Numbered from the stretch's first letter, positions 35,814 to 44,832 are shown. The stretch is 64,000 nucleotides of DNA from Patescibacteria group bacterium (GCA_041649155.1 JBAZNP010000001.1:302564-366563), one strand, 5' to 3'. Numbers and translations: made by a program. The notes: generated by a model not told the origin, from the sequence alone.

Positions 35814-36590
35814 ATGAATAAATTAACCTATAAAAGATCCCTCCACTCCGGTCGGGATGACACATTTATGAAAAAAATATTACTTGGCCTGACCACAACT
35901 CCCGGTTCTGATTGGCGAGAAAAAGTTAAAGAAATTGACGAACTTGGTATTAAGGAAATTGCATTGTTTCCGACTTTTTTAAAACACGAGGAAAGGAAAA
36001 TTCTTTACAACCTTCTTGAGAAATCTAAAATTAAATTAATTCCACATGTTCACATAAGAACAGACATGGACGTCGAAGAAGTGATTTATCTGAAAGAAAG
36101 ATTCGGTTCATATTTATTTAATACGCATGCCAATCCTGAATGGATAAATAAAATACTTGAATATAAAAAGGCCAATCTTAAAATCTTTTTGGAGAATACT
36201 AGTTTATTGTGCCTACAAGAGATTGAAAAACACATTAGAGAAGTGGACGGCCTCTGTTTGGATTACTCTCATTGGAAAAGCAAAAAGCTATTGAGAGAAG
36301 AAGACTATGATTTACTAATGAAAAGACTAGTCGATCATAATAAAATCGGCTGTTGCCACATATCGGCAATCTACAATAAACCAAAAGAAATGAGCTGGAG
36401 CACCGAAAGTCCTCATTACTCTGGGCATTACATGTATAAATTATCTGATCTGGATTACATGAAAAGTTATGTGCAATACTTGCCAGAAATTATTAGCATT
36501 GAGCTTGAAAATTCATTTGAGGAGCAGTTAAAGGCAAAAGAATATGTTGAAAAGCTGATAACAATGAACGGTCAGAAGCAACCTATTTAA
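35814..36590 (+). CDS. Hypothetical protein, possibly a TIM-barrel sugar-modifying enzyme, inserted in the rml operon
   Basis: 258-aa ORF. Likely start is MKKILLGL at 35868. No recognisable motif. Confidence 0.4.
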   Translation: MNKLTYKRSLHSGRDDTFMKKILLGLTTTPGSDWREKVKEIDELGIKEIALFPTFLKHEERKILYNLLEKSKIKLIPHVHIRTDMDVEEVIYLKERFGSYLFNTHANPEWINKILEYKKANLKIFLENTSLLCLQEIEKHIREVDGLCLDYSHWKSKKLLREEDYDLLMKRLVDHNKIGCCHISAIYNKPKEMSWSTESPHYSGHYMYKLSDLDYMKSYVQYLPEIISIELENSFEEQLKAKEYVEKLITMNGQKQPI

Positions 36591-36593
36591 TGT

Positions 36594-36621
36594 GTCATCC
36601 CAGACTTGATCTGGGATCCAG
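36594..36621. repeat. Family-A palindromic repeat unit (GTCATCCCAGA-CTTGA-TCTGGGATCCAG)
   Basis: Hairpin with an 8-bp stem. Same unit type as 61900, 44305 and 45315. Confidence 0.7.
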
Positions 36622-36624
36622 AAT

Positions 36625-36942
36625 ATGAAAAATTACTTTGTCTATATCCTGACAAGCAGAAGAAACGGCACATTATATATTGGCGTTACGAATAATTTAA
36701 TTAGAAGAGTTTGGGAACACAAAGAAAAATTAGTTGATGGTTTTACAAAAAAGTATGACATTAATAAATTGGTTTATTATGAAATGACCACGGATATTGA
36801 AGCAGCAATTAGCAGAGAGAAACTGTTAAAATCTTGGAATAGAAAGTGGAAAATGGAATTAATTGAGAAGGTAAATCCAAACTGGAATGATTTATATGAT
36901 GAATTGGTAAATACTGGATCCTCGGGTCAAGCCCGAGGATGA
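36625..36942 (+). CDS. GIY-YIG nuclease family protein (UPF0213/YhbQ-like)
   Basis: YFVYILTSRRNGTLYIGVTNNLIRRVWEHK is the GIY-YIG motif. The last 9 codons are encoded by the flanking palindromic repeat. Confidence 0.8.
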   Translation: MKNYFVYILTSRRNGTLYIGVTNNLIRRVWEHKEKLVDGFTKKYDINKLVYYEMTTDIEAAISREKLLKSWNRKWKMELIEKVNPNWNDLYDELVNTGSSGQARG

Positions 36943-38432: not shown

Positions 38433-38551
38433 TTTTCTCCCTTGCTTAATATTAATTACATTTTATACTAAAATAAGAGACAATAAAACGCCGGATTTGA
38501 CGTCAGTAATGTTTTCAATATACAATCTAAGTAGCTAAACGGAGGAGAATT

Positions 38552-39307
38552 ATGCTTGATGTTAAAATCGAGAAAATTTTGCCGGTAACTGAAGCAAGAG
38601 ATTCTTTTAATAAGTTGATTGATGAGGTGGAAAGCAGCGACGAACTTTATGTATTAACAAAAAACGGCAAGCCTGCTGCCGTATTAGTAGGCGTACATCA
38701 TTTAGAAAAATTAACCGGAACAAGCGAGGAGGAATTAATGGATCAAACAAATCAAAATGCAGCCAGTGATGCAAATGCAGTGCCTGTCACAACAGATGAC
38801 ACCACGCAAACAATAAGTGCTACACCGGCAACCGACATGCCAGAGCAATCAACGGAGGAGGCAACTCCCCCTATAGTTCCTGCGGTCGAAGAAAATAATT
38901 CGGCAATGCCTTTACAATCCGCTATGACAAATAACTCTGCAGAGGAAACCGCTCCTTTAACATCGGCAGCGCCAATTGAAAATATTGCTGCTGAAACTCC
39001 GATCACTGAACCGCAAACATCAGGAGCTACTGCTGATCCTTTGAGCAGTATTAATCAAACTGCTAGTGAGGCGACAACAGCACCTGCTAATAATGCCCCC
39101 GTCGAAGATCCGCTTGATTTTTTAAGCGATAATTCTGACCCGATATCACTAGCCTCAGAAGGTCCTGTATCGGCTCCCGATGCCGCAATGAGCGCTCCAG
39201 CTGCAATGCCAACCGAGGCGCCAGCAGCAACAGAACCAGCACCGGCAGCCCCTGTTCCAACCACAGAAACACCGGCTAATCCGACAACTCCCCCGATTGG
39301 TCAGTAG
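38552..39307 (+). CDS. Phd/YefM antitoxin-like N-domain fused to a ~190-aa Ala/Pro/Thr/Glu-rich disordered tail
   Basis: N-terminal ILPVTEARDSFNKLIDEVESSDELYVLTKNGKPAAVLVGVHHLEKL matches the Phd/YefM fold signature. The remainder is low complexity. Confidence 0.55.
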   Translation: MLDVKIEKILPVTEARDSFNKLIDEVESSDELYVLTKNGKPAAVLVGVHHLEKLTGTSEEELMDQTNQNAASDANAVPVTTDDTTQTISATPATDMPEQSTEEATPPIVPAVEENNSAMPLQSAMTNNSAEETAPLTSAAPIENIAAETPITEPQTSGATADPLSSINQTASEATTAPANNAPVEDPLDFLSDNSDPISLASEGPVSAPDAAMSAPAAMPTEAPAATEPAPAAPVPTTETPANPTTPPIGQ

Positions 39308-39336
39308 TTTGTAGTAAGTATTAAGAGATATAATTT

Positions 39337-39366
39337 AAAAACCTTCGGTGATCCGAAGGTTTTTAA
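39337..39366. terminator. Bidirectional intrinsic terminator AAAAACCTTCGG-TGAT-CCGAAGGTTTTT
   Basis: Perfect 12-bp stem flanked by A and T runs, lying between convergent genes. Confidence 0.75.
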
Positions 39367-39505
39367 ATTAGAAGAGATAAGAGACAAATAGAAATTAATT
39401 TTTAAATCCTAATTTCTAATGTCAAACAAAATATCAAATGCTTAAATAATTTAGAAATTTGGAATTTAGATTTTTGTTTGTAATTTGTTATTTGGATTTT
39501 GAAAT

Positions 39506-40138
39506 TTAACTAGTTGTTGCTTCTTTTTTTGTGTGTTTGATATGTCTTAATACAAATAAAACCACGCAAGCAACAACAAGTATTCCAATGGCCATGTCAA
39601 AATTATGCAACTTTTCCCGTATCAGTTCCCAATTATTGCCCATCTTTATTCCTAACCAAGCAAAAAGTGCAGTCCAAGGCAAAGCACCCAAAGTCGTGTA
39701 AATTGAAAATCTTTTTACATCCATTTTTGATATGCCGGCCGGAAAAGAAATGTAGGTTCGGACAACTGGCAAAAGTCTTCCAAAGAAAACAGTCAGATCA
39801 CCATATTTTGCGAACCATCTGTCAGCCAGATCAAGATCGTGTTTTGAAATTAAAATATATTTACCATATTTTTCAATTAATGGACGACCACCTTTGTAAC
39901 CAATCCAATAAGCCAGAAGAGAGCCAGCTAAATTACCCAGAGTTCCCATTACAACAATTAGCCAGAAAAGCATTTTTCCGTCAGCAACCAAAAAACCGGA
40001 AAAAGGCATAATCACTTCTGAAGGCATTGGAATTCCGCAAGATTCAAGCATCATCAAAAGAAAAATACCCGGATATCCAAGAATTCCGATTGTGTGAACT
40101 ACAAACTGCGCTAGAATATCGATAATGTCTGTAACCAT
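39506..40138 (-). CDS. DedA/SNARE-associated family membrane protein
   Basis: GYPGIFLLMMLESCGIPMPSE motif. Confidence 0.8.
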   Translation of the reverse strand: MVTDIIDILAQFVVHTIGILGYPGIFLLMMLESCGIPMPSEVIMPFSGFLVADGKMLFWLIVVMGTLGNLAGSLLAYWIGYKGGRPLIEKYGKYILISKHDLDLADRWFAKYGDLTVFFGRLLPVVRTYISFPAGISKMDVKRFSIYTTLGALPWTALFAWLGIKMGNNWELIREKLHNFDMAIGILVVACVVLFVLRHIKHTKKEATTS

Positions 40139-40145
40139 TGTTCTC

Positions 40146-41144
40146 CTAGTCCTGAATTAGGTTAATAATTAACTTAATTATAGCATCTTTTTCTCTTGGA
40201 TTGCTCGAAGCAACAAGCAAAGCCAACGCCACTAACGTACGATCAGAAATTTTTGTTTCACCATTTTCTTTAAACAGAAAATTGTTCTTTTCTAAAAAAT
40301 ATAAGAATAAAAGCGACCCAATACGCTTATTGCCGTCAGAAAAAGGGTGGTCTTTTATTACAAAATACAATAAATGAGCTGCCTTTCCCTCGACTGAACC
40401 ATATAAATCTTCTCCACCAAAGGTCTGATAAAGATTGCCAATAATACCCTCAAACTGATGGTCCCTTTCAGAGCCGAAAAGATCGCCAACAATTTTCTTG
40501 GCGATTAAATCATCTTTTAGTCTGTCAATAATTTCACGACATTTGTAATACTTGAGAGCAAATTTAGCTTTCTTTTGCTTTTTAATTTCGATTTTGTTTT
40601 CATCATACTCACCCAGCACTTTCCATGTTTTGGAATACCTTTCGATGACATCTAGAATTTCTTGTTCGTGACCAGTAAGTTCAACTTGTTTCGCTTTTTC
40701 TGTAATAAATCTAATGATCGATTGAACCTCTTTAAATTTTTTATCGTTGATTGCGTAACCTTTGACTAAATAATTGCGCAGCGTTTTGGTCGCCCAGACA
40801 CGAAAATCAGTCGCTTTTTTAGAACTAACACGATATCCAATAGATAAAATCATATCCAAATTATAGAACTTAGTGTCATAAACCTTCCCGTCACTGGCAG
40901 TTATCCGGAATTTCCGGATAACTGAATTCTCTTCCAACTCTGCCTCTTTAAAAATGTTCTTTATATGCTCATTGATCGTTCGAACATCTTTACCAAAAAC
41001 TTCCCCAATTTGTTTTTGCGTCAGCCACACAGTCTCATCTTGGATTTTTGTCTTAATTTCAATGTTACCAGACTTCGATTTGTAAATTATTAATTCCCCT
41101 TCTTGCTTCATAATTCCTTCTTTTTTAAGTATATTGTAACACAA
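40146..41144 (-). CDS. RhuM-family N-domain fused to a Doc/Fic toxin-like domain
   Basis: N-terminal RhuM-like HTH region (WLTQKQIGEVFGKDVRTINEHIKNIF). C-terminal Doc-type motif HPFSDGNKRIG. The real start is probably the internal M at ~41111. Confidence 0.65.
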   Translation of the reverse strand: MCYNILKKEGIMKQEGELIIYKSKSGNIEIKTKIQDETVWLTQKQIGEVFGKDVRTINEHIKNIFKEAELEENSVIRKFRITASDGKVYDTKFYNLDMILSIGYRVSSKKATDFRVWATKTLRNYLVKGYAINDKKFKEVQSIIRFITEKAKQVELTGHEQEILDVIERYSKTWKVLGEYDENKIEIKKQKKAKFALKYYKCREIIDRLKDDLIAKKIVGDLFGSERDHQFEGIIGNLYQTFGGEDLYGSVEGKAAHLLYFVIKDHPFSDGNKRIGSLLFLYFLEKNNFLFKENGETKISDRTLVALALLVASSNPREKDAIIKLIINLIQD

Positions 41145-41187: not shown

Positions 41188-43494
41188 TTAGCCTTTAGGC
41201 CATTTTGAGATCATTATTGACTCACAAAGTTCTGGATAAATATTCCTAAGCTCCTGCCAGACTGCTTCAGTTACAAAAGGCACAAATGGATGAAGCATTA
41301 TAAGAGTTTCCGAGAGAACTTTTATTAGTACCTTTTTAGTTGTCAGTTGTAAGCCGTGCCTACCGGCAGGCAGGTTGTCAGTTGTAAGTTGCGTTTTAGC
41401 AACTTCGATATACTCATCGCAGAAATCATGCCAGAAATAGTCATAAATTTCCTCGCCGGCATGAGAGAAACGAAATTCGTTCAATTTTTTAGTGATGGAT
41501 TTTTTAACTTCTTCATGCTTTTTCAAAATCTCTTTGTCTGGACCAGTCAATATTTTTTCGTCAATATTCAAATTAGTAACTTTTGTTTCGCCGATTTTTC
41601 CGCTTTGAATGTCGCCTTCAGATACTCGTAGCATTACAAAACGAGAAGCATTCCAAATCTTATTTGAAAAATTACGGTAGCCTTTAATTTTTGCTTCACC
41701 AAGCGCAACGTCCTGTCCCGGTGTCGAACCGACAACCAAAGCCATTCGCAGAGCATCTGTGCCGTACTTATCGATAATATCCAAAGGATCCAAAACATTG
41801 CCAAGAGACTTGCTCATCTTTCGATTATGCTCATCCCGAACCAGACCGTGAAGATATACCGTTTCAAAAGGAACCTCTCCTGTTAGCTCTAGTCCCATCA
41901 TGATCATTCGAGCAACCCAGAAAAATAAAATATCGTAACCGGTTTCAAGCACATTTGTCGGATAAAAAGATTTTAAATCATTTGTTTCTTGTGGCCAACC
42001 TAAGGTTGAAAATGGCCACAAAGAAGACGAAAACCAAGTGTCTAAGACATCTTCGTCTTGCTCCCAATTTTCAATATCTTTCGGCGGCTCGACACCGACG
42101 TAAATATTGTCCTGACCCTGACAGGATTTCTCGCCTTCATTCATCCGCCCAACGGCGGGTTCTGAATGGGTCGAAATGACATCTTGGAATTTGGGATTTG
42201 GGACTTCATTAGAAATTAGAAATTCGGAATTAGAAATTCCCCGTCTGTACCAGACGGGTATCTGATGTCCCCACCAAAGTTGGCGAGAGATGCACCAATC
42301 ACGAATGTTGTCCATCCAGTGAAAATATACTTTTTCAAAACGCTCCGGAATTATTTTGATTTGTCCGGATCTTACAGCCTCTTTGGCTTTTTCTGCCAAA
42401 GGCGCCATTTTTACGAACCACTGCAAAGAAGGAAGGGGCTCAATTGTGCCGCCACATCGATAACAAACGCTCAAATTATTTGTATAATCCTCTTCTTTTT
42501 CGAGCAAATCGTTTTCTTTGAAATATTGAATTAATTTCTCTGCCGCTTCCTTTGTTTTTAAACCTTGATATTTGCCGGCCTCTTCAGTCATTCTGCCATT
42601 TTCATCTATGACTTTGATTTTTTCAAGTTTATGATCTTCGGACATCTTCCAGTCAGTCATTGAATGAGCTGGTGTTACACCAACTGCGCCGGTACCAAAT
42701 TTTTCATCAATTGACCTATCGGCAATAATTTTGATCTTACGCTTAACGCCGTCAAGATCAATTTCATATTCTTTACCGATAAATTCTTTGTATCGCTTAT
42801 CGTTCGAGTTAACAGCAACGGCCACATCACCAAGCTTGGTTTCCGGTCTCGTAGTCGCGATTGTTATCGGGAAATTTTTATCATATTTGAAATAATAAAG
42901 TTTTGATGACTTTTCAATGTGTTCAACCTCGTCATCAGCAATAGCCGTGTGGCATTTCGGGCACCAGTTAACAATGTAATTACCTCGATAGATAAGGCCT
43001 TTTTTATAAAGCCTGGTGAATGCTTCATTAACTGCCTTGTTTAATCCTTCATCAAGGGTAAATCTTTCCCTTGACCAATCACAGGATGAACCAAGCCGGC
43101 GAAGCTGATTTGTAATCGCATTACCATGCTCCTCTTTCCACTTCCAAACCTCCTCAACAAATTTGTCCCTACCGATTTCGTTTTTGTTAATGCCTTTTTT
43201 GCGAAGAGATTTATCAACCACAGTTTGAGTGGCAATGCCAGCGTGATCTGTGCCGGGAAGCCAAAGCGATGGCTCGCCCAAAAGGCGATGGTATCTAGTT
43301 AAAATATCTTCAAGAGTTGAAAACATGGCATGACCAAGGTGAAGTTTGCCGGTTACATTCGGAGGCGGCATCATGATTGTGAACGGCTTGCCATCCAGAT
43401 TCACTTCAGGTTTAAAATAGCCGGATTTTTCCCAGTTATTATAGATCTTCTCTTCAAATTTTTGCGGCTCGTAAGCCTTAGAAATTTCTTTCAT
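41188..43494 (-). CDS. valS: Valyl-tRNA synthetase, carrying a ~47-aa in-frame repeat-derived insertion
   Basis: HIGH-like PPPNVTGKLHLGHA, KMSKS, DVLDTWFSS. The track ORF extends to 43617, but its first 41 codons are translations of the intergenic repeats. The true start MKEISKAYEP is at 43494. Confidence 0.9.
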   Translation of the reverse strand: MKEISKAYEPQKFEEKIYNNWEKSGYFKPEVNLDGKPFTIMMPPPNVTGKLHLGHAMFSTLEDILTRYHRLLGEPSLWLPGTDHAGIATQTVVDKSLRKKGINKNEIGRDKFVEEVWKWKEEHGNAITNQLRRLGSSCDWSRERFTLDEGLNKAVNEAFTRLYKKGLIYRGNYIVNWCPKCHTAIADDEVEHIEKSSKLYYFKYDKNFPITIATTRPETKLGDVAVAVNSNDKRYKEFIGKEYEIDLDGVKRKIKIIADRSIDEKFGTGAVGVTPAHSMTDWKMSEDHKLEKIKVIDENGRMTEEAGKYQGLKTKEAAEKLIQYFKENDLLEKEEDYTNNLSVCYRCGGTIEPLPSLQWFVKMAPLAEKAKEAVRSGQIKIIPERFEKVYFHWMDNIRDWCISRQLWWGHQIPVWYRRGISNSEFLISNEVPNPKFQDVISTHSEPAVGRMNEGEKSCQGQDNIYVGVEPPKDIENWEQDEDVLDTWFSSSLWPFSTLGWPQETNDLKSFYPTNVLETGYDILFFWVARMIMMGLELTGEVPFETVYLHGLVRDEHNRKMSKSLGNVLDPLDIIDKYGTDALRMALVVGSTPGQDVALGEAKIKGYRNFSNKIWNASRFVMLRVSEGDIQSGKIGETKVTNLNIDEKILTGPDKEILKKHEEVKKSITKKLNEFRFSHAGEEIYDYFWHDFCDEYIEVAKTQLTTDNLPAGRHGLQLTTKKVLIKVLSETLIMLHPFVPFVTEAVWQELRNIYPELCESIMISKWPKG
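42110..42262. repeat. Composite palindromic repeat insertion inside valS (GC-rich hairpins plus TTAGAAATT motif)
   Basis: Hairpins CCCGTCTG-TAC-CAGACGGG and GGAATT-AGA-AATTCC, plus a GAAATGAC terminus. They encode RGISNSEFLISNEVPNPKFQDVISTHSEPAVGRMNEGEKSCQGQ between the conserved WY and DNIYVG. Confidence 0.7.
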
Positions 43495-43542
43495 CACAAT
43501 TAAAATATCACAAGAGAGCTTTAAGCGCCAGAACCAATATTT

Positions 43543-43615
43543 GTCATTCCCGTGTAGACGGGAATCTACTAAAAGATATAAAACTATCTTGGATCCCCGC
43601 CTTCGCGGGGATGAC
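43543..43615. repeat. Family-A composite element (two inverted hairpin units plus 21-bp spacer), intergenic between valS and tsaD
   Basis: GTCATTCCCGTGTAGACGGGAATCTAC ... GGATCCCCGCCTTCGCGGGGATGAC. Confidence 0.8.
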
Positions 43616-43632
43616 ATGGAAAATAAGAAATG

Positions 43633-44832
43633 TCATATCTCTAAATTTGAATTGATTTCAATGTCTTTCCATGTTGAAATATTTTTCTTTTGAATATGGT
43701 AGTAAGCCGCTAGCCCGATCATTGCGGCATTATCACCACATAAATTTTTAGGCGCAGGTAAAAATTTTATACTGTTATCTGTTATCTGTATTCTGTATGC
43801 TAACTCGCTTCTCAAGCGAGTATTGGCAGCAACTCCTCCGGCCAGCACAACTGCTTTCGGCTCAAATTTCTCCACTGCCCTCATCGTTTTTGTAACCAGC
43901 ACATCAACAACAGCATCCTCAAAAGCAGCACAGATCTCTTCCTTTTGATCTTCCGAAATTAATCCCTGCTTTCTTGAATCAATCACTTTCTGGAGTACTG
44001 CAGTCTTAAGCCCAGAGAAAGAAAAGTTAAAAGTTCCATTATTCAGGATTGGTCTCGGAAAAATAATCCCTTCTCTGCCCTCTACCTTCCCCTTTCTACT
44101 TCTAAACTTGCTTGCGAGCTTAGAAACCACTGGTCCACCTGGATAGCCTAGCCCGAGCAACTTAGCCACCTTATCAAAAGCTTCGCCTGCCGCATCGTCT
44201 AAAGTCTGCCCGATCGTTTCGTATTCTCCATGATCTTTCATAAGTGTCAGCGAAGTATGACCGCCACTTACAGTTAATGATAAGACTGGAAATTGACACG
44301 AAGTGTCATCCTCGGGCTTGACCCGGGGATCCACTAATAGTAGATTCCCGCCTTCGCGGGAATGACAATAAGCGAAAGCGGAGTATATGTGTCCTTCTAT
44401 GTGATTTACGGGAATAATCGGCTTATCCAAAGAATAAGCCGTGGCCTTTGCAGCATTAAATCCGACTAAAAGAGATCCGATTAAACCTGGACCATTAGTA
44501 ACGGCAATGTGAGTGATATCATTCTGAAGCACTTTTATAGCCTCAGAATAGTTACTAGTTCCTAGTTTCGAATCATTAGAATCCTTGTAACTAGTGACTT
44601 GTAGCTTGTTACTCGCCTGAATCAATGCTTCCGTTATCACTGGAATAATATTTTCCATATGAGCACGACTGGCCACTTCAGGTACGACTCCGCCTGTTAT
44701 CGCATGCAAATCGACTTGAGAATTTACAATATTTGATAGAACAATAGGATTGCCATCTTTTTCGCCAATTACAGAAGCAGCCGTCTCATCGCAGCTCGTC
44801 TCAATAGCTAATATTTTAATATCTTTTTTCAT
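43633..44832 (-). CDS. tsaD: tRNA N6-adenosine threonylcarbamoyltransferase TsaD/Kae1, carrying in-frame repeat insertions
   Basis: ILAIETSCDETAASV...GGVVPEVASRAH...NGPGLIGSLLVG...SGGHTSL. At 399 aa it is ~60 aa longer than a typical TsaD. Confidence 0.85.
   Translation of the reverse strand: MKKDIKILAIETSCDETAASVIGEKDGNPIVLSNIVNSQVDLHAITGGVVPEVASRAHMENIIPVITEALIQASNKLQVTSYKDSNDSKLGTSNYSEAIKVLQNDITHIAVTNGPGLIGSLLVGFNAAKATAYSLDKPIIPVNHIEGHIYSAFAYCHSREGGNLLLVDPRVKPEDDTSCQFPVLSLTVSGGHTSLTLMKDHGEYETIGQTLDDAAGEAFDKVAKLLGLGYPGGPVVSKLASKFRSRKGKVEGREGIIFPRPILNNGTFNFSFSGLKTAVLQKVIDSRKQGLISEDQKEEICAAFEDAVVDVLVTKTMRAVEKFEPKAVVLAGGVAANTRLRSELAYRIQITDNSIKFLPAPKNLCGDNAAMIGLAAYYHIQKKNISTWKDIEINSNLEI
43771..43800. 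repeat. Family-C repeat copy (ACTGTTATCTGTTATCTGTATTCTGTATGC) inside tsaD
   Basis: Near-identical to 60617-60647. Inverted copy at 45554-45580. Confidence 0.6.
44305..44366. repeat. Family-A composite element inserted in-frame within tsaD
   Basis: GTCATCCTCGGGCTTGACCCGGGGATCCAC TAATAGTA GATTCCCGCCTTCGCGGGAATGAC. Translated as ...AYCHSREGGNLLLVDPRVKPEDDTSCQF... Confidence 0.8.

Follow-up and report, generated by a model that had tools for sequence, protein, structure and literature searches.

A tailed Phd/YefM-fold protein and an accessory RhuM/Fic/DOC gene as neighbours in a Patescibacteria genome

A stretch of 64,000 nucleotides (nt) from a Patescibacteria group bacterium (GCA_041649155.1 JBAZNP010000001.1:302564-366563; the whole stretch is called the window below) was analysed with respect to two genes lying close to each other. 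One encodes a Phd/YefM-type protein with a long disordered tail (tailed Phd protein), and the other a RhuM/Fic/DOC family protein, in which a RhuM-type domain is joined to a Doc-type Fic domain. The original prediction, made from the sequence alone, had considered the two a rearranged or decoupled Phd-Doc pair. We instead assign a probability of about 0.75 to the reading that two unrelated genes stand side by side, namely a core tailed Phd protein and an accessory RhuM/Fic/DOC module. Accordingly, both are taken as real genes, but not as a toxin-antitoxin (TA) pair, and the locus would be an ordinary accessory toxin/defence candidate adjoining a moderately interesting domesticated antitoxin-fold protein. 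The window contains one Phd and one Doc gene; no further ones were found in its 64 kb. The following features define the locus (aa, amino acids; AF2, AlphaFold2):

38552..39307, plus strand: tailed Phd gene, 251 aa, solitary Phd/YefM-fold protein with acidic disordered tail (profiles, AF2, Foldseek, HMMER)
39506..40138, minus strand: dedA, DedA/VTT-domain membrane protein, UptA-like (PF09335, E 4.4e-24); end of the tsaD-valS-(RhuM/Fic)-dedA string and conserved convergent neighbour of the tailed Phd gene
40146..41111, minus strand: RhuM/Fic/DOC family gene, 321 aa, accessory cargo in a variable slot (profiles, AF2)

Gene order around the two genes

The tailed Phd gene converges on the minus-strand genes dedA and RhuM/Fic, of which dedA lies in between, and the stop codons of the tailed Phd and RhuM/Fic open reading frames (ORFs) are 838 nt apart. 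That the two are not an operon and not a canonical TA locus had been stated in the original prediction and is confirmed by this layout. For the comparison of gene order, the tailed Phd family was represented by a species sample of 35 loci (L005-L039, 475 kb in total), which are labelled Berkelbacteria, Saccharibacteria, Woesebacteria or Patescibacteria group. The RhuM/Fic/DOC family was represented by 77 metagenome loci (404 kb of flanking sequence), whose homologues show 38-54% identity, and by 80 viral loci (626 kb).

An initial hint of linkage came from several relatives in which both genes are located on one short contig. The conserved backbone, however, consists of gtrA and the tailed Phd gene, then the convergent dedA, followed by (valS and) tsaD, and the slot that separates dedA from valS/tsaD carries RhuM/Fic as optional cargo. 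Downstream of the tailed Phd gene, dedA is present in 26 of the 35 species loci. In relatives with a 66-69% identical RhuM/Fic, the order is tsaD - RhuM/Fic - dedA and then the convergent tailed Phd gene. Both borders of the slot were identified in 19 loci. Five of these slots are empty, three carry a full-length RhuM/Fic gene, two carry decayed remnants of the RhuM N-terminal domain (RhuM-N), one carries an HTH_17 gene plus a Doc gene and one a 54-aa ORF plus a Doc gene. GNAT, DUF559, PEBP or unknown ORFs were found in the remaining slots, whereby PEBP occurs in the locus with a 52-aa remnant.

Doc-domain ORFs occur in 5/35 tailed Phd loci, all five within the slot, and three of them are RhuM/Fic. 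In the opposite direction, a search with a general Phd hidden Markov model over ~1 Mb detected no Phd ORF beside the RhuM/Fic/DOC homologues, neither in the metagenome (0/77) nor in the viral loci (0/80). The tailed Phd gene and RhuM/Fic are thus probably neighbours through lineage synteny plus an insertion hotspot and not a functional pair.

The two Doc genes other than RhuM/Fic each have a small gene of their own in front. In L006 (11635-12247), the slot contains a 146-aa Fic/DOC protein behind the 54-aa ORF, and in L031 (2294-2967) a 139-aa Fic/DOC protein behind an 84-aa HTH_17 protein, the genes overlapping by 1 nt. Truncated RhuM-N remnants without a Doc domain are located in the slots of L025 (11776-12213, 145 aa) and L034 (13532-13690, 52 aa) and indicate decay or loss of RhuM/Fic in some lineages.

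The tailed Phd protein

The tailed Phd gene is divided into the following parts and accompanied by the following signals:

38497..38526, plus strand: σ70-like promoter, TTGACG-18 nt-TACAAT (10/12 matches)
~38541-38547, plus strand: Shine-Dalgarno sequence GGAGGAG
38552..38767, plus strand: Phd/YefM N-domain, residues 1-72 (Pfam, TIGRFAM, AF2, Foldseek, alignment)
38768..39307, plus strand: acidic P/A/T/S-rich disordered tail, hypervariable in length and sequence among species
39104..39130, plus strand: acidic-Phe short linear motif EDPLDFLSD, residues 185-193 (tail alignment and shuffling)
39331..39370: perfect hairpin with an 18-bp stem (100% complementary) flanked by A and T runs, bidirectional intrinsic terminator

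Residues 7-70 are matched by PF02604 PhdYeFM_antitox (E 2.6e-13, 50 bits, cutoff 29.8), and TIGR01552 phd_fam gives an E-value of 3.3e-10 (39.2 bits, cutoff 20.8). In an AF2 model calculated from a 32-sequence alignment, residues 1-72 adopt the canonical β-α-α-β-β-α fold with a predicted local distance difference test score (pLDDT) of 71-90, and the top 50 Foldseek matches of this model in the PDB are Phd/YefM-type antitoxins without exception (50/50). The assignment of the N-domain to Phd/YefM in the original prediction is thus upheld by profile search and model alike, and the predicted fold places the protein in the Phd/YefM superfamily. Among solved structures, Rv2865 (RelB2/RelF) and RelB1 of M. 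tuberculosis (PDB 3G5O, 9G12; E 3.8e-7 and 5e-4) are closest to the N-domain, by sequence as well as by fold. Those are antitoxins of 85-95 aa next to RelE-type toxins, whereas the window protein is long-tailed, and no toxin gene adjoining the tailed Phd gene was found in the window or in the 35 species loci.

Residues 59-72 of the model form a polar helix with falling confidence, after which the acidic disordered tail of ~180 aa begins. Residues 73-251 are without secondary structure (pLDDT 41-62), in agreement with the long disordered tail that had been predicted. In the tail, counted from residue 67 (67-251, 185 aa), P, A, T and S are abundant, and 26 residues are acidic, but none is basic. 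Tandem DNA repeats coding for the tail were not found. Neither was a signal peptide, a membrane segment or any hydrophobic segment detected in the protein, the maximum Kyte-Doolittle value over 19 residues being 0.51. Neutralisation of Doc by Phd depends on a ~22-residue two-helix segment straight after the N-domain, which provides six hydrophobic hot spots (PMC9207808). When the AF2 model is compared with this pattern, no hydrophobic two-helix segment is present behind the N-domain. Without a toxin operon and a neutralising segment, the tailed Phd protein fails these two defining features of a working type II antitoxin; we regard it as a domesticated, tailed form of the Phd/YefM fold.

A word-index search yielded 217 relatives. 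Among the 120 listed, lengths range from 139 to 316 aa, and Phd/YefM is the sole Pfam domain, with the exception of P0134, which also contains DciA. Every source naming an organism names Patescibacteria. An exhaustive HMMER search with the 69-aa N-domain over 1.84 billion representative proteins gave 139 proteins at E ≤ 1e-10, each representing a cluster at 50% identity. Nearly all of them have the domain at residues 1-65 and a whole length of 145-395 aa, and ordinary Phd/YefM proteins score far weaker; because of these lengths and scores, the long tail is the rule within a discrete clade. Family members were not found in viral contigs.

The alignment of the family shows 19 invariant columns in the N-domain and hypervariable tails that differ in both length and sequence. 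The median identity of the N-domain to the 35 species loci is 74%, compared to 54% for TsaD, 68% for ValRS, 72% for DedA, 76% for RmlB and 50% for GtrA in the same loci; the tail is ≤ 37% identical or unalignable. These values indicate that the N-domain is under purifying selection at the level of housekeeping proteins. In our view, such conservation would be unexpected for an antitoxin which tracks a mobile toxin. The possibility that the gene is an orphan remnant or pseudogene was rejected, since the N-domain is 74% identical across species and the ORF is intact and long in a genome of 37% GC; furthermore, long tails are usual across ~139 clusters at 50% identity. Family genes typically have GtrA on their upstream side; on the downstream side, DedA, a small ferredoxin-like ORF or a DUF59-like ORF is found.

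A different neighbourhood is present in L003 (3430-8077), in which the tailed Phd gene has dnaA-dnaN-recF-dciA in front of it in the same orientation, with a gap of 22 nt to dciA. On another contig, DciA and the tailed Phd protein are fused to a single 316-aa protein (P0134; PF05258 + PF02604). Linkage and fusion would be compatible with a DNA-related role, but they concern one lineage only.

Of 34 family loci, ~13 have a TTGAC(G/A)...TAnAAT box as in the window upstream of the start codon, and nearly all have a GGAGG-like Shine-Dalgarno sequence there. The terminator is situated between the convergent tailed Phd and dedA genes. From the promoter and Shine-Dalgarno sequence in front of it and the bidirectional terminator behind it, the tailed Phd gene is predicted to be monocistronic. 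Autoregulation is unsupported because the upstream regions share promoter and Shine-Dalgarno sequence only. Lineage-specific short direct or inverted repeats are located ~100 nt upstream of the start in L006, L008, L014, L017, L023 and L037 (for example GTTACTCGTAACTCGTTACTTGTAAC, TTACTGCCTTACTGCCTTACTGCG and GCTATTAGCAATTTGCTATCAGCTATTAGCAA); these are not kept between lineages despite the nearly invariant N-domain.

Within the variable tails, a motif of the class [DE][DE][PLIV]F or DPLDFL occurs in 100 of 119 cases, whereas shuffled tails gave a mean of 24 and a maximum of 34. Short-tailed members carry the motif at the extreme C-terminus (NEDLFV-COOH). Members of 346-395 aa (P0301, P0303-P0305, P0311, P0294) have several conserved motif islands amid variable tail sequence, i.e., DDLFSDFDD, KSIFDDD, (S/M)YNDFIAP and HPNY(S/T)FDQN, plus a TPP-rich C-terminus. 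The presence of several islands per long tail suggests that partner binding may be multivalent. The DPLDFL variant is found in the window protein, which has RhuM/Fic nearby, and in its closest homologues P0121-P0128. A link between the type of tail motif and the presence of RhuM/Fic was considered and rejected, since the distribution of this variant does not follow RhuM/Fic: the closest species loci L005 and L006 are without RhuM/Fic, and the RhuM/Fic-bearing loci of P0231 and P0139 have another motif or none.

In this family, the Phd/YefM fold, which is dimeric in solved relatives, has been retained, and an acidic disordered tail of 75-330 aa stands where a short toxin-binding C-terminus would be usual; the protein is presumably cytoplasmic, separately transcribed and without a toxin partner. 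Going beyond fold, disorder, conservation and motif, we propose the following mechanism. The globular domain may serve as an anchor on DNA or on a fixed protein partner. The acidic tail may then present [DE][DE][PLIV]F motifs which recruit partner proteins or compete for them. This part of the proposal follows the example of the bacterial single-stranded DNA-binding protein (SSB), which consists of an OB fold, a disordered linker and an acidic DDDIPF tip. The likeness, a functional analogy only, lies in a conserved globular oligomerising domain, a hypervariable P/A/T/Q-rich linker and an acidic motif ending in Phe. However, the folds differ (OB versus Phd/YefM), and in the tailed Phd family the motif frequently lies inside the tail and sometimes occurs more than once.

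The RhuM/Fic/DOC gene and its surroundings

The RhuM/Fic/DOC protein comprises the following parts:

40707..41111, minus strand: RhuM-type N-terminal domain, residues 1-135, winged-helix/Bro-N-like (PF13310, Bro-N, PDC-S05)
40149..40550, minus strand: Doc-type Fic domain, residues 188-321 (PF02661, TIGR01550, AF2, Foldseek)
40323..40349, minus strand: catalytic motif HPFSDGNKR of the Doc type, residues 255-263

The ORF is open up to a TTG at 41144, but the ATG at 41111, which is preceded by AAGAAGGA, is likely the true start. PF13310 Virulence_RhuM matches with an E-value of 1.3e-23, covering only profile positions 1-74 of 252; Bro-N matches the same domain with an E-value of 0.019, and the models of PDC-S05 (RhuM candidate) match residues 1 to ~131. 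Compared to Salmonella RhuM (SPI-3, PF13310), the first ~130 residues are common to both, but the other 178 of the 252 profile positions are unmatched, and the window protein has a Doc-type Fic domain there. PF02661 Fic matches with an E-value of 1.6e-10 (42.1 bits, cutoff 24). TIGR01550 DOC_P1 is missed marginally (36.8 bits, cutoff 38.65); the Doc domain of the window is a divergent fused Doc and not a P1-type stand-alone Doc. In the AF2 model, the Fic part (residues 188-320) reaches a pLDDT of 80-91. Foldseek aligned the model to P1 Doc (3k33_A) over 111 columns with a probability of 1.00, a template modelling (TM) score of 0.63 when normalised to Doc and a root mean square deviation of 3.4 Å; the probability for FICD is 0.99. 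Thus, the fusion of a RhuM-like domain to a Doc/Fic domain that had been predicted, including the Fic core and the Doc-type motif, is corroborated.

Doc-type motifs are defined as HxFx[D/N][A/G]NKR, in which the second Gly of the Fic motif is exchanged for Lys. The extended form KDHxFxDGNKR is invariant in 40 homologues of the window protein. The canonical inhibitory Fic motif [ST]xxxE[GN] was not seen on inspection of the translation. A perfect palindrome with a 12-bp stem (CAGTTATCCGGAATTTCCGGATAACTG, 40898-40924) is located within the region coding for the RhuM-type N-domain and was flagged by the terminator scan.

At least 8000 homologues share both Pfam domains. Among the 120 listed, 120/120 carry PF13310 and PF02661, and their length is 254-350 aa, mostly 318-350 aa; the family name at NCBI is "virulence protein RhuM/Fic/DOC family protein". 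Over its full length, the window protein also matches PDC-S23, a single-gene phage-defence candidate of PADLOC (PDLC04965; E 1.4e-123, residues 1-320 versus profile positions 1-324 of 327), with which it shares the two-domain architecture and the invariant catalytic motif. The PDC systems, described as untested candidates, were compiled from genes that lie within BREX, DISARM or type I restriction-modification (RM) systems (bioRxiv 10.1101/2024.01.29.577857). The match fits the suggestion of the original prediction that the protein is a defence component; literature on "PDC-S23" by name was not found. In contrast to the setting in which PDC families were defined, the window gene is not embedded in BREX, DISARM or type I RM, but has valS and dedA as neighbours, as part of the housekeeping string tsaD-valS-X-dedA of a Patescibacteria genome.

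For RhuM-family genes in general, a statistical enrichment next to phase-variable type I RM loci has been reported (PMC9881135). In the 77 metagenome loci, the neighbours are heterogeneous, with RM-like helicase, methylase and HsdS genes recurring and other Fic, RhuM and integrase genes occurring occasionally. Among the viral contigs of IMG/VR, six full-length homologues (L152-L157) with 39-44% identity and one C-terminal partial match (L161) were found, and the RhuM N-domain by itself is frequent in these contigs. We take the RhuM/Fic/DOC gene as a known, mobile and self-contained module.

This module is characterised by its fold, by a Doc-type catalytic motif that selection maintains, by its occurrence as a single gene and by its association with RM systems and mobile elements; its activity would be as follows. 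A winged-helix RhuM-type domain for sensing or DNA binding is connected by a helical linker to the Doc-type Fic domain. Judging from the invariant HxFxDGNKR, the latter may be a protein kinase which arrests translation, as P1 Doc does by acting on EF-Tu. Regulation would take place in cis through the RhuM-type domain and the helical linker, not through a separate antitoxin, and the protein may act as a toxin or abortive-infection effector.

Concerning the remaining window, the DedA protein scores 196 bits with NF052604 UptA and stays under the cutoff of 250. PADLOC gave no matches for the tailed Phd and DedA proteins. The sole Rfam match in the window is a SAM (S-adenosylmethionine) riboswitch (RF00162; 1086-1215, minus strand; 56.1 bits, E 2.9e-10), and tRNA genes were not found in the 64 kb. 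Between rmlB and rmlD, which directly adjoin in the relative L001/L015, a 258-aa ORF without Pfam match (35814-36590) and a 105-aa ORF with a GIY-YIG nuclease domain (36625-36942) are located; the region 35814-36942 gives the impression that the dTDP-rhamnose operon has received a small insertion. Copies of a short, GC-rich palindromic element (about TTGTCATTCCCGCGAAGGCGGGAATC) are present at 43541-43571, 43592-43616 and 44338-44368. One copy lies in frame within the coding sequence of tsaD and encodes the peptide HSREGGNLLLVDPRVKPEDD (~44290-44364). Two copies at the 5' end of valS, at the valS-tsaD junction, produce a spurious N-terminal extension of valS, MSSPRRRGSK...RLHGNDK; the true start is probably MKEISKAY at residue 42 of the ORF. 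The AT-rich region between the terminator and the dedA stop codon (39396-39510) contains degenerate repeats of the form TTAGAAATTTGGAATTTAGATTT, and an inverted stretch related to these is found within valS (42189-42238).

Alternative readings and meaning of the finding

A number of observations weigh against the reading of two unrelated genes. The trio of tailed Phd gene, dedA and RhuM/Fic is intact in close relatives, even in L003, where dnaA-dnaN-recF-dciA replaces gtrA in the flank. Three Doc architectures are located within ~2.5 kb of the tailed Phd gene, with none elsewhere in the ~475 kb of family loci. The N-domain itself has a net acidic composition (14 D+E versus 7 K+R), and the 34 aligned upstream regions contain no conserved operator or palindrome, having only promoter and Shine-Dalgarno sequence in common. 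Finally, no partner protein or DNA site of the tailed Phd protein was found, and its proposed role is one that we infer.

Some of these points bear on a narrower role of the tailed Phd protein, which is rather unlikely. According to this alternative, it would be a local transcription factor for the divergent gtrA and the envelope-glycan genes, its tail being an entropic spacer or stability tuner only. Phd/YefM N-domains do bind operator DNA, and complexes of this kind are among the Foldseek matches (PDB 4zm0, 4zm2, 7v6w); in addition, no other upstream neighbour is as stable as GtrA, whose gene often diverges from the tailed Phd gene over a short intergenic region common to both. However, a conserved palindrome or operator would be expected to accompany a nearly invariant N-domain and is missing from the 34 loci, L003 and some further loci have another upstream neighbour, and the enrichment of tail motifs argues for more than a spacer.

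The clustering of Doc genes beside the tailed Phd gene could also be explained by a guardian function, which we consider quite improbable. As a core and constitutively expressed protein of Berkelbacteria-like Patescibacteria, the tailed Phd protein would bind and restrain Doc-type kinases of any origin in trans via its acidic-Phe motifs, similar to an anti-addiction or immunity factor, and the neighbouring slot would be a tolerated landing site for Doc modules. If this were true, the three independent Doc architectures would have settled in this one slot because such kinases are restrained there. The strong promoter and Shine-Dalgarno sequence of the gene point in the same direction. So do the tail motifs, which are acidic plus Phe and which we take to resemble loosely the Doc-binding helix of P1 Phd with Phe56 and Phe60. 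Phe56 and Phe60 of P1 Phd are hot spots of Doc binding (PMC9207808). The interface of Phd and Doc, however, comprises six hot spots over ~15 residues (PMC9207808), while the tail motif has 4-7 residues, includes Pro and lacks a predicted helix. Moreover, each of the two non-RhuM Doc genes has its own small upstream gene, most genomes of the family show no nearby Doc gene, and elsewhere the slot is empty or filled with unrelated cargo, as would be the case for a generic insertion hotspot.

That the tailed Phd protein is the present or recent cognate antitoxin of the Doc domain in RhuM/Fic, as the original prediction implied, is highly improbable, and the phyletic data already refute it for the most part. 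This idea could draw on the distance of only 0.8 kb between the Phd/YefM and Doc domains, on the trio with dedA being kept in the relatives with 66-69% identical RhuM/Fic, and on the recurrence of Doc-type genes in the adjacent slot. Both components of phage P1 Phd-Doc (PDB 3K33, 3DD7) are also recognisable, as the fold of the Phd/YefM N-domain is common to both systems (Foldseek 3hs2, 4zlx, 3k33_C) and so is the Doc-type Fic domain with HxFxDGNKR (3k33_A). In P1, however, the two genes form a bicistronic operon, whereas those of the window are convergent and separate transcription units with dedA and a terminator in between. P1 Phd has 73 aa, of which residues 52-73 form the Doc-neutralising helices (PMC9207808), where the window protein has its 185-aa acidic disordered tail. 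The Doc domain of the window, unlike P1 Doc, is fused to a 190-aa RhuM-type N-terminal region. The two genes do not co-occur across genomes: 30/35 tailed Phd loci are without a Doc-domain gene, and a Phd gene is present in 0/157 RhuM/Fic/DOC loci. A closest relationship of the N-domain to the RelE-partner antitoxins Rv2865 and RelB1, its conservation at housekeeping level and a tail motif type which is not matched to the presence of RhuM/Fic are further points against a decoupled pair.

A secreted or surface factor had also been proposed; as a (glyco)protein with the tail as extracellular linker or glycosylation substrate, it is barely credible: the P/T/S/A-rich composition and the envelope-glycan neighbours (GtrA, the UptA-like DedA, rmlABCD, glycosyltransferases and a flippase-like gene) would suit it, but a signal peptide or membrane segment is absent, the Phd fold, a cytoplasmic antitoxin fold, begins at residue 1, and inspection revealed TPP-rich ends in most tails and no C-terminal sorting motif.

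We therefore return to two unrelated neighbours, a core tailed Phd protein and an accessory module. The RhuM/Fic/DOC gene is one more member of a large, already named family of defence candidates, found here in a genome of the Candidate Phyla Radiation (CPR). The tailed Phd proteins are labelled "type II toxin-antitoxin system antitoxin" in databases, and this label probably misleads TA and defence censuses of Patescibacteria. In a lineage whose genomes are tiny and in which few regulators are known, a TA fold has apparently been recruited as a core gene without a toxin partner. Conservation of the globular domain equals that of aminoacyl-tRNA synthetases, and the tail evolves fast, yet retains acidic-Phe motifs. 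The family is a reasonable lead for CPR biology, and a partner of the tailed Phd protein, if found, could reveal a lineage-specific hub or regulatory protein.

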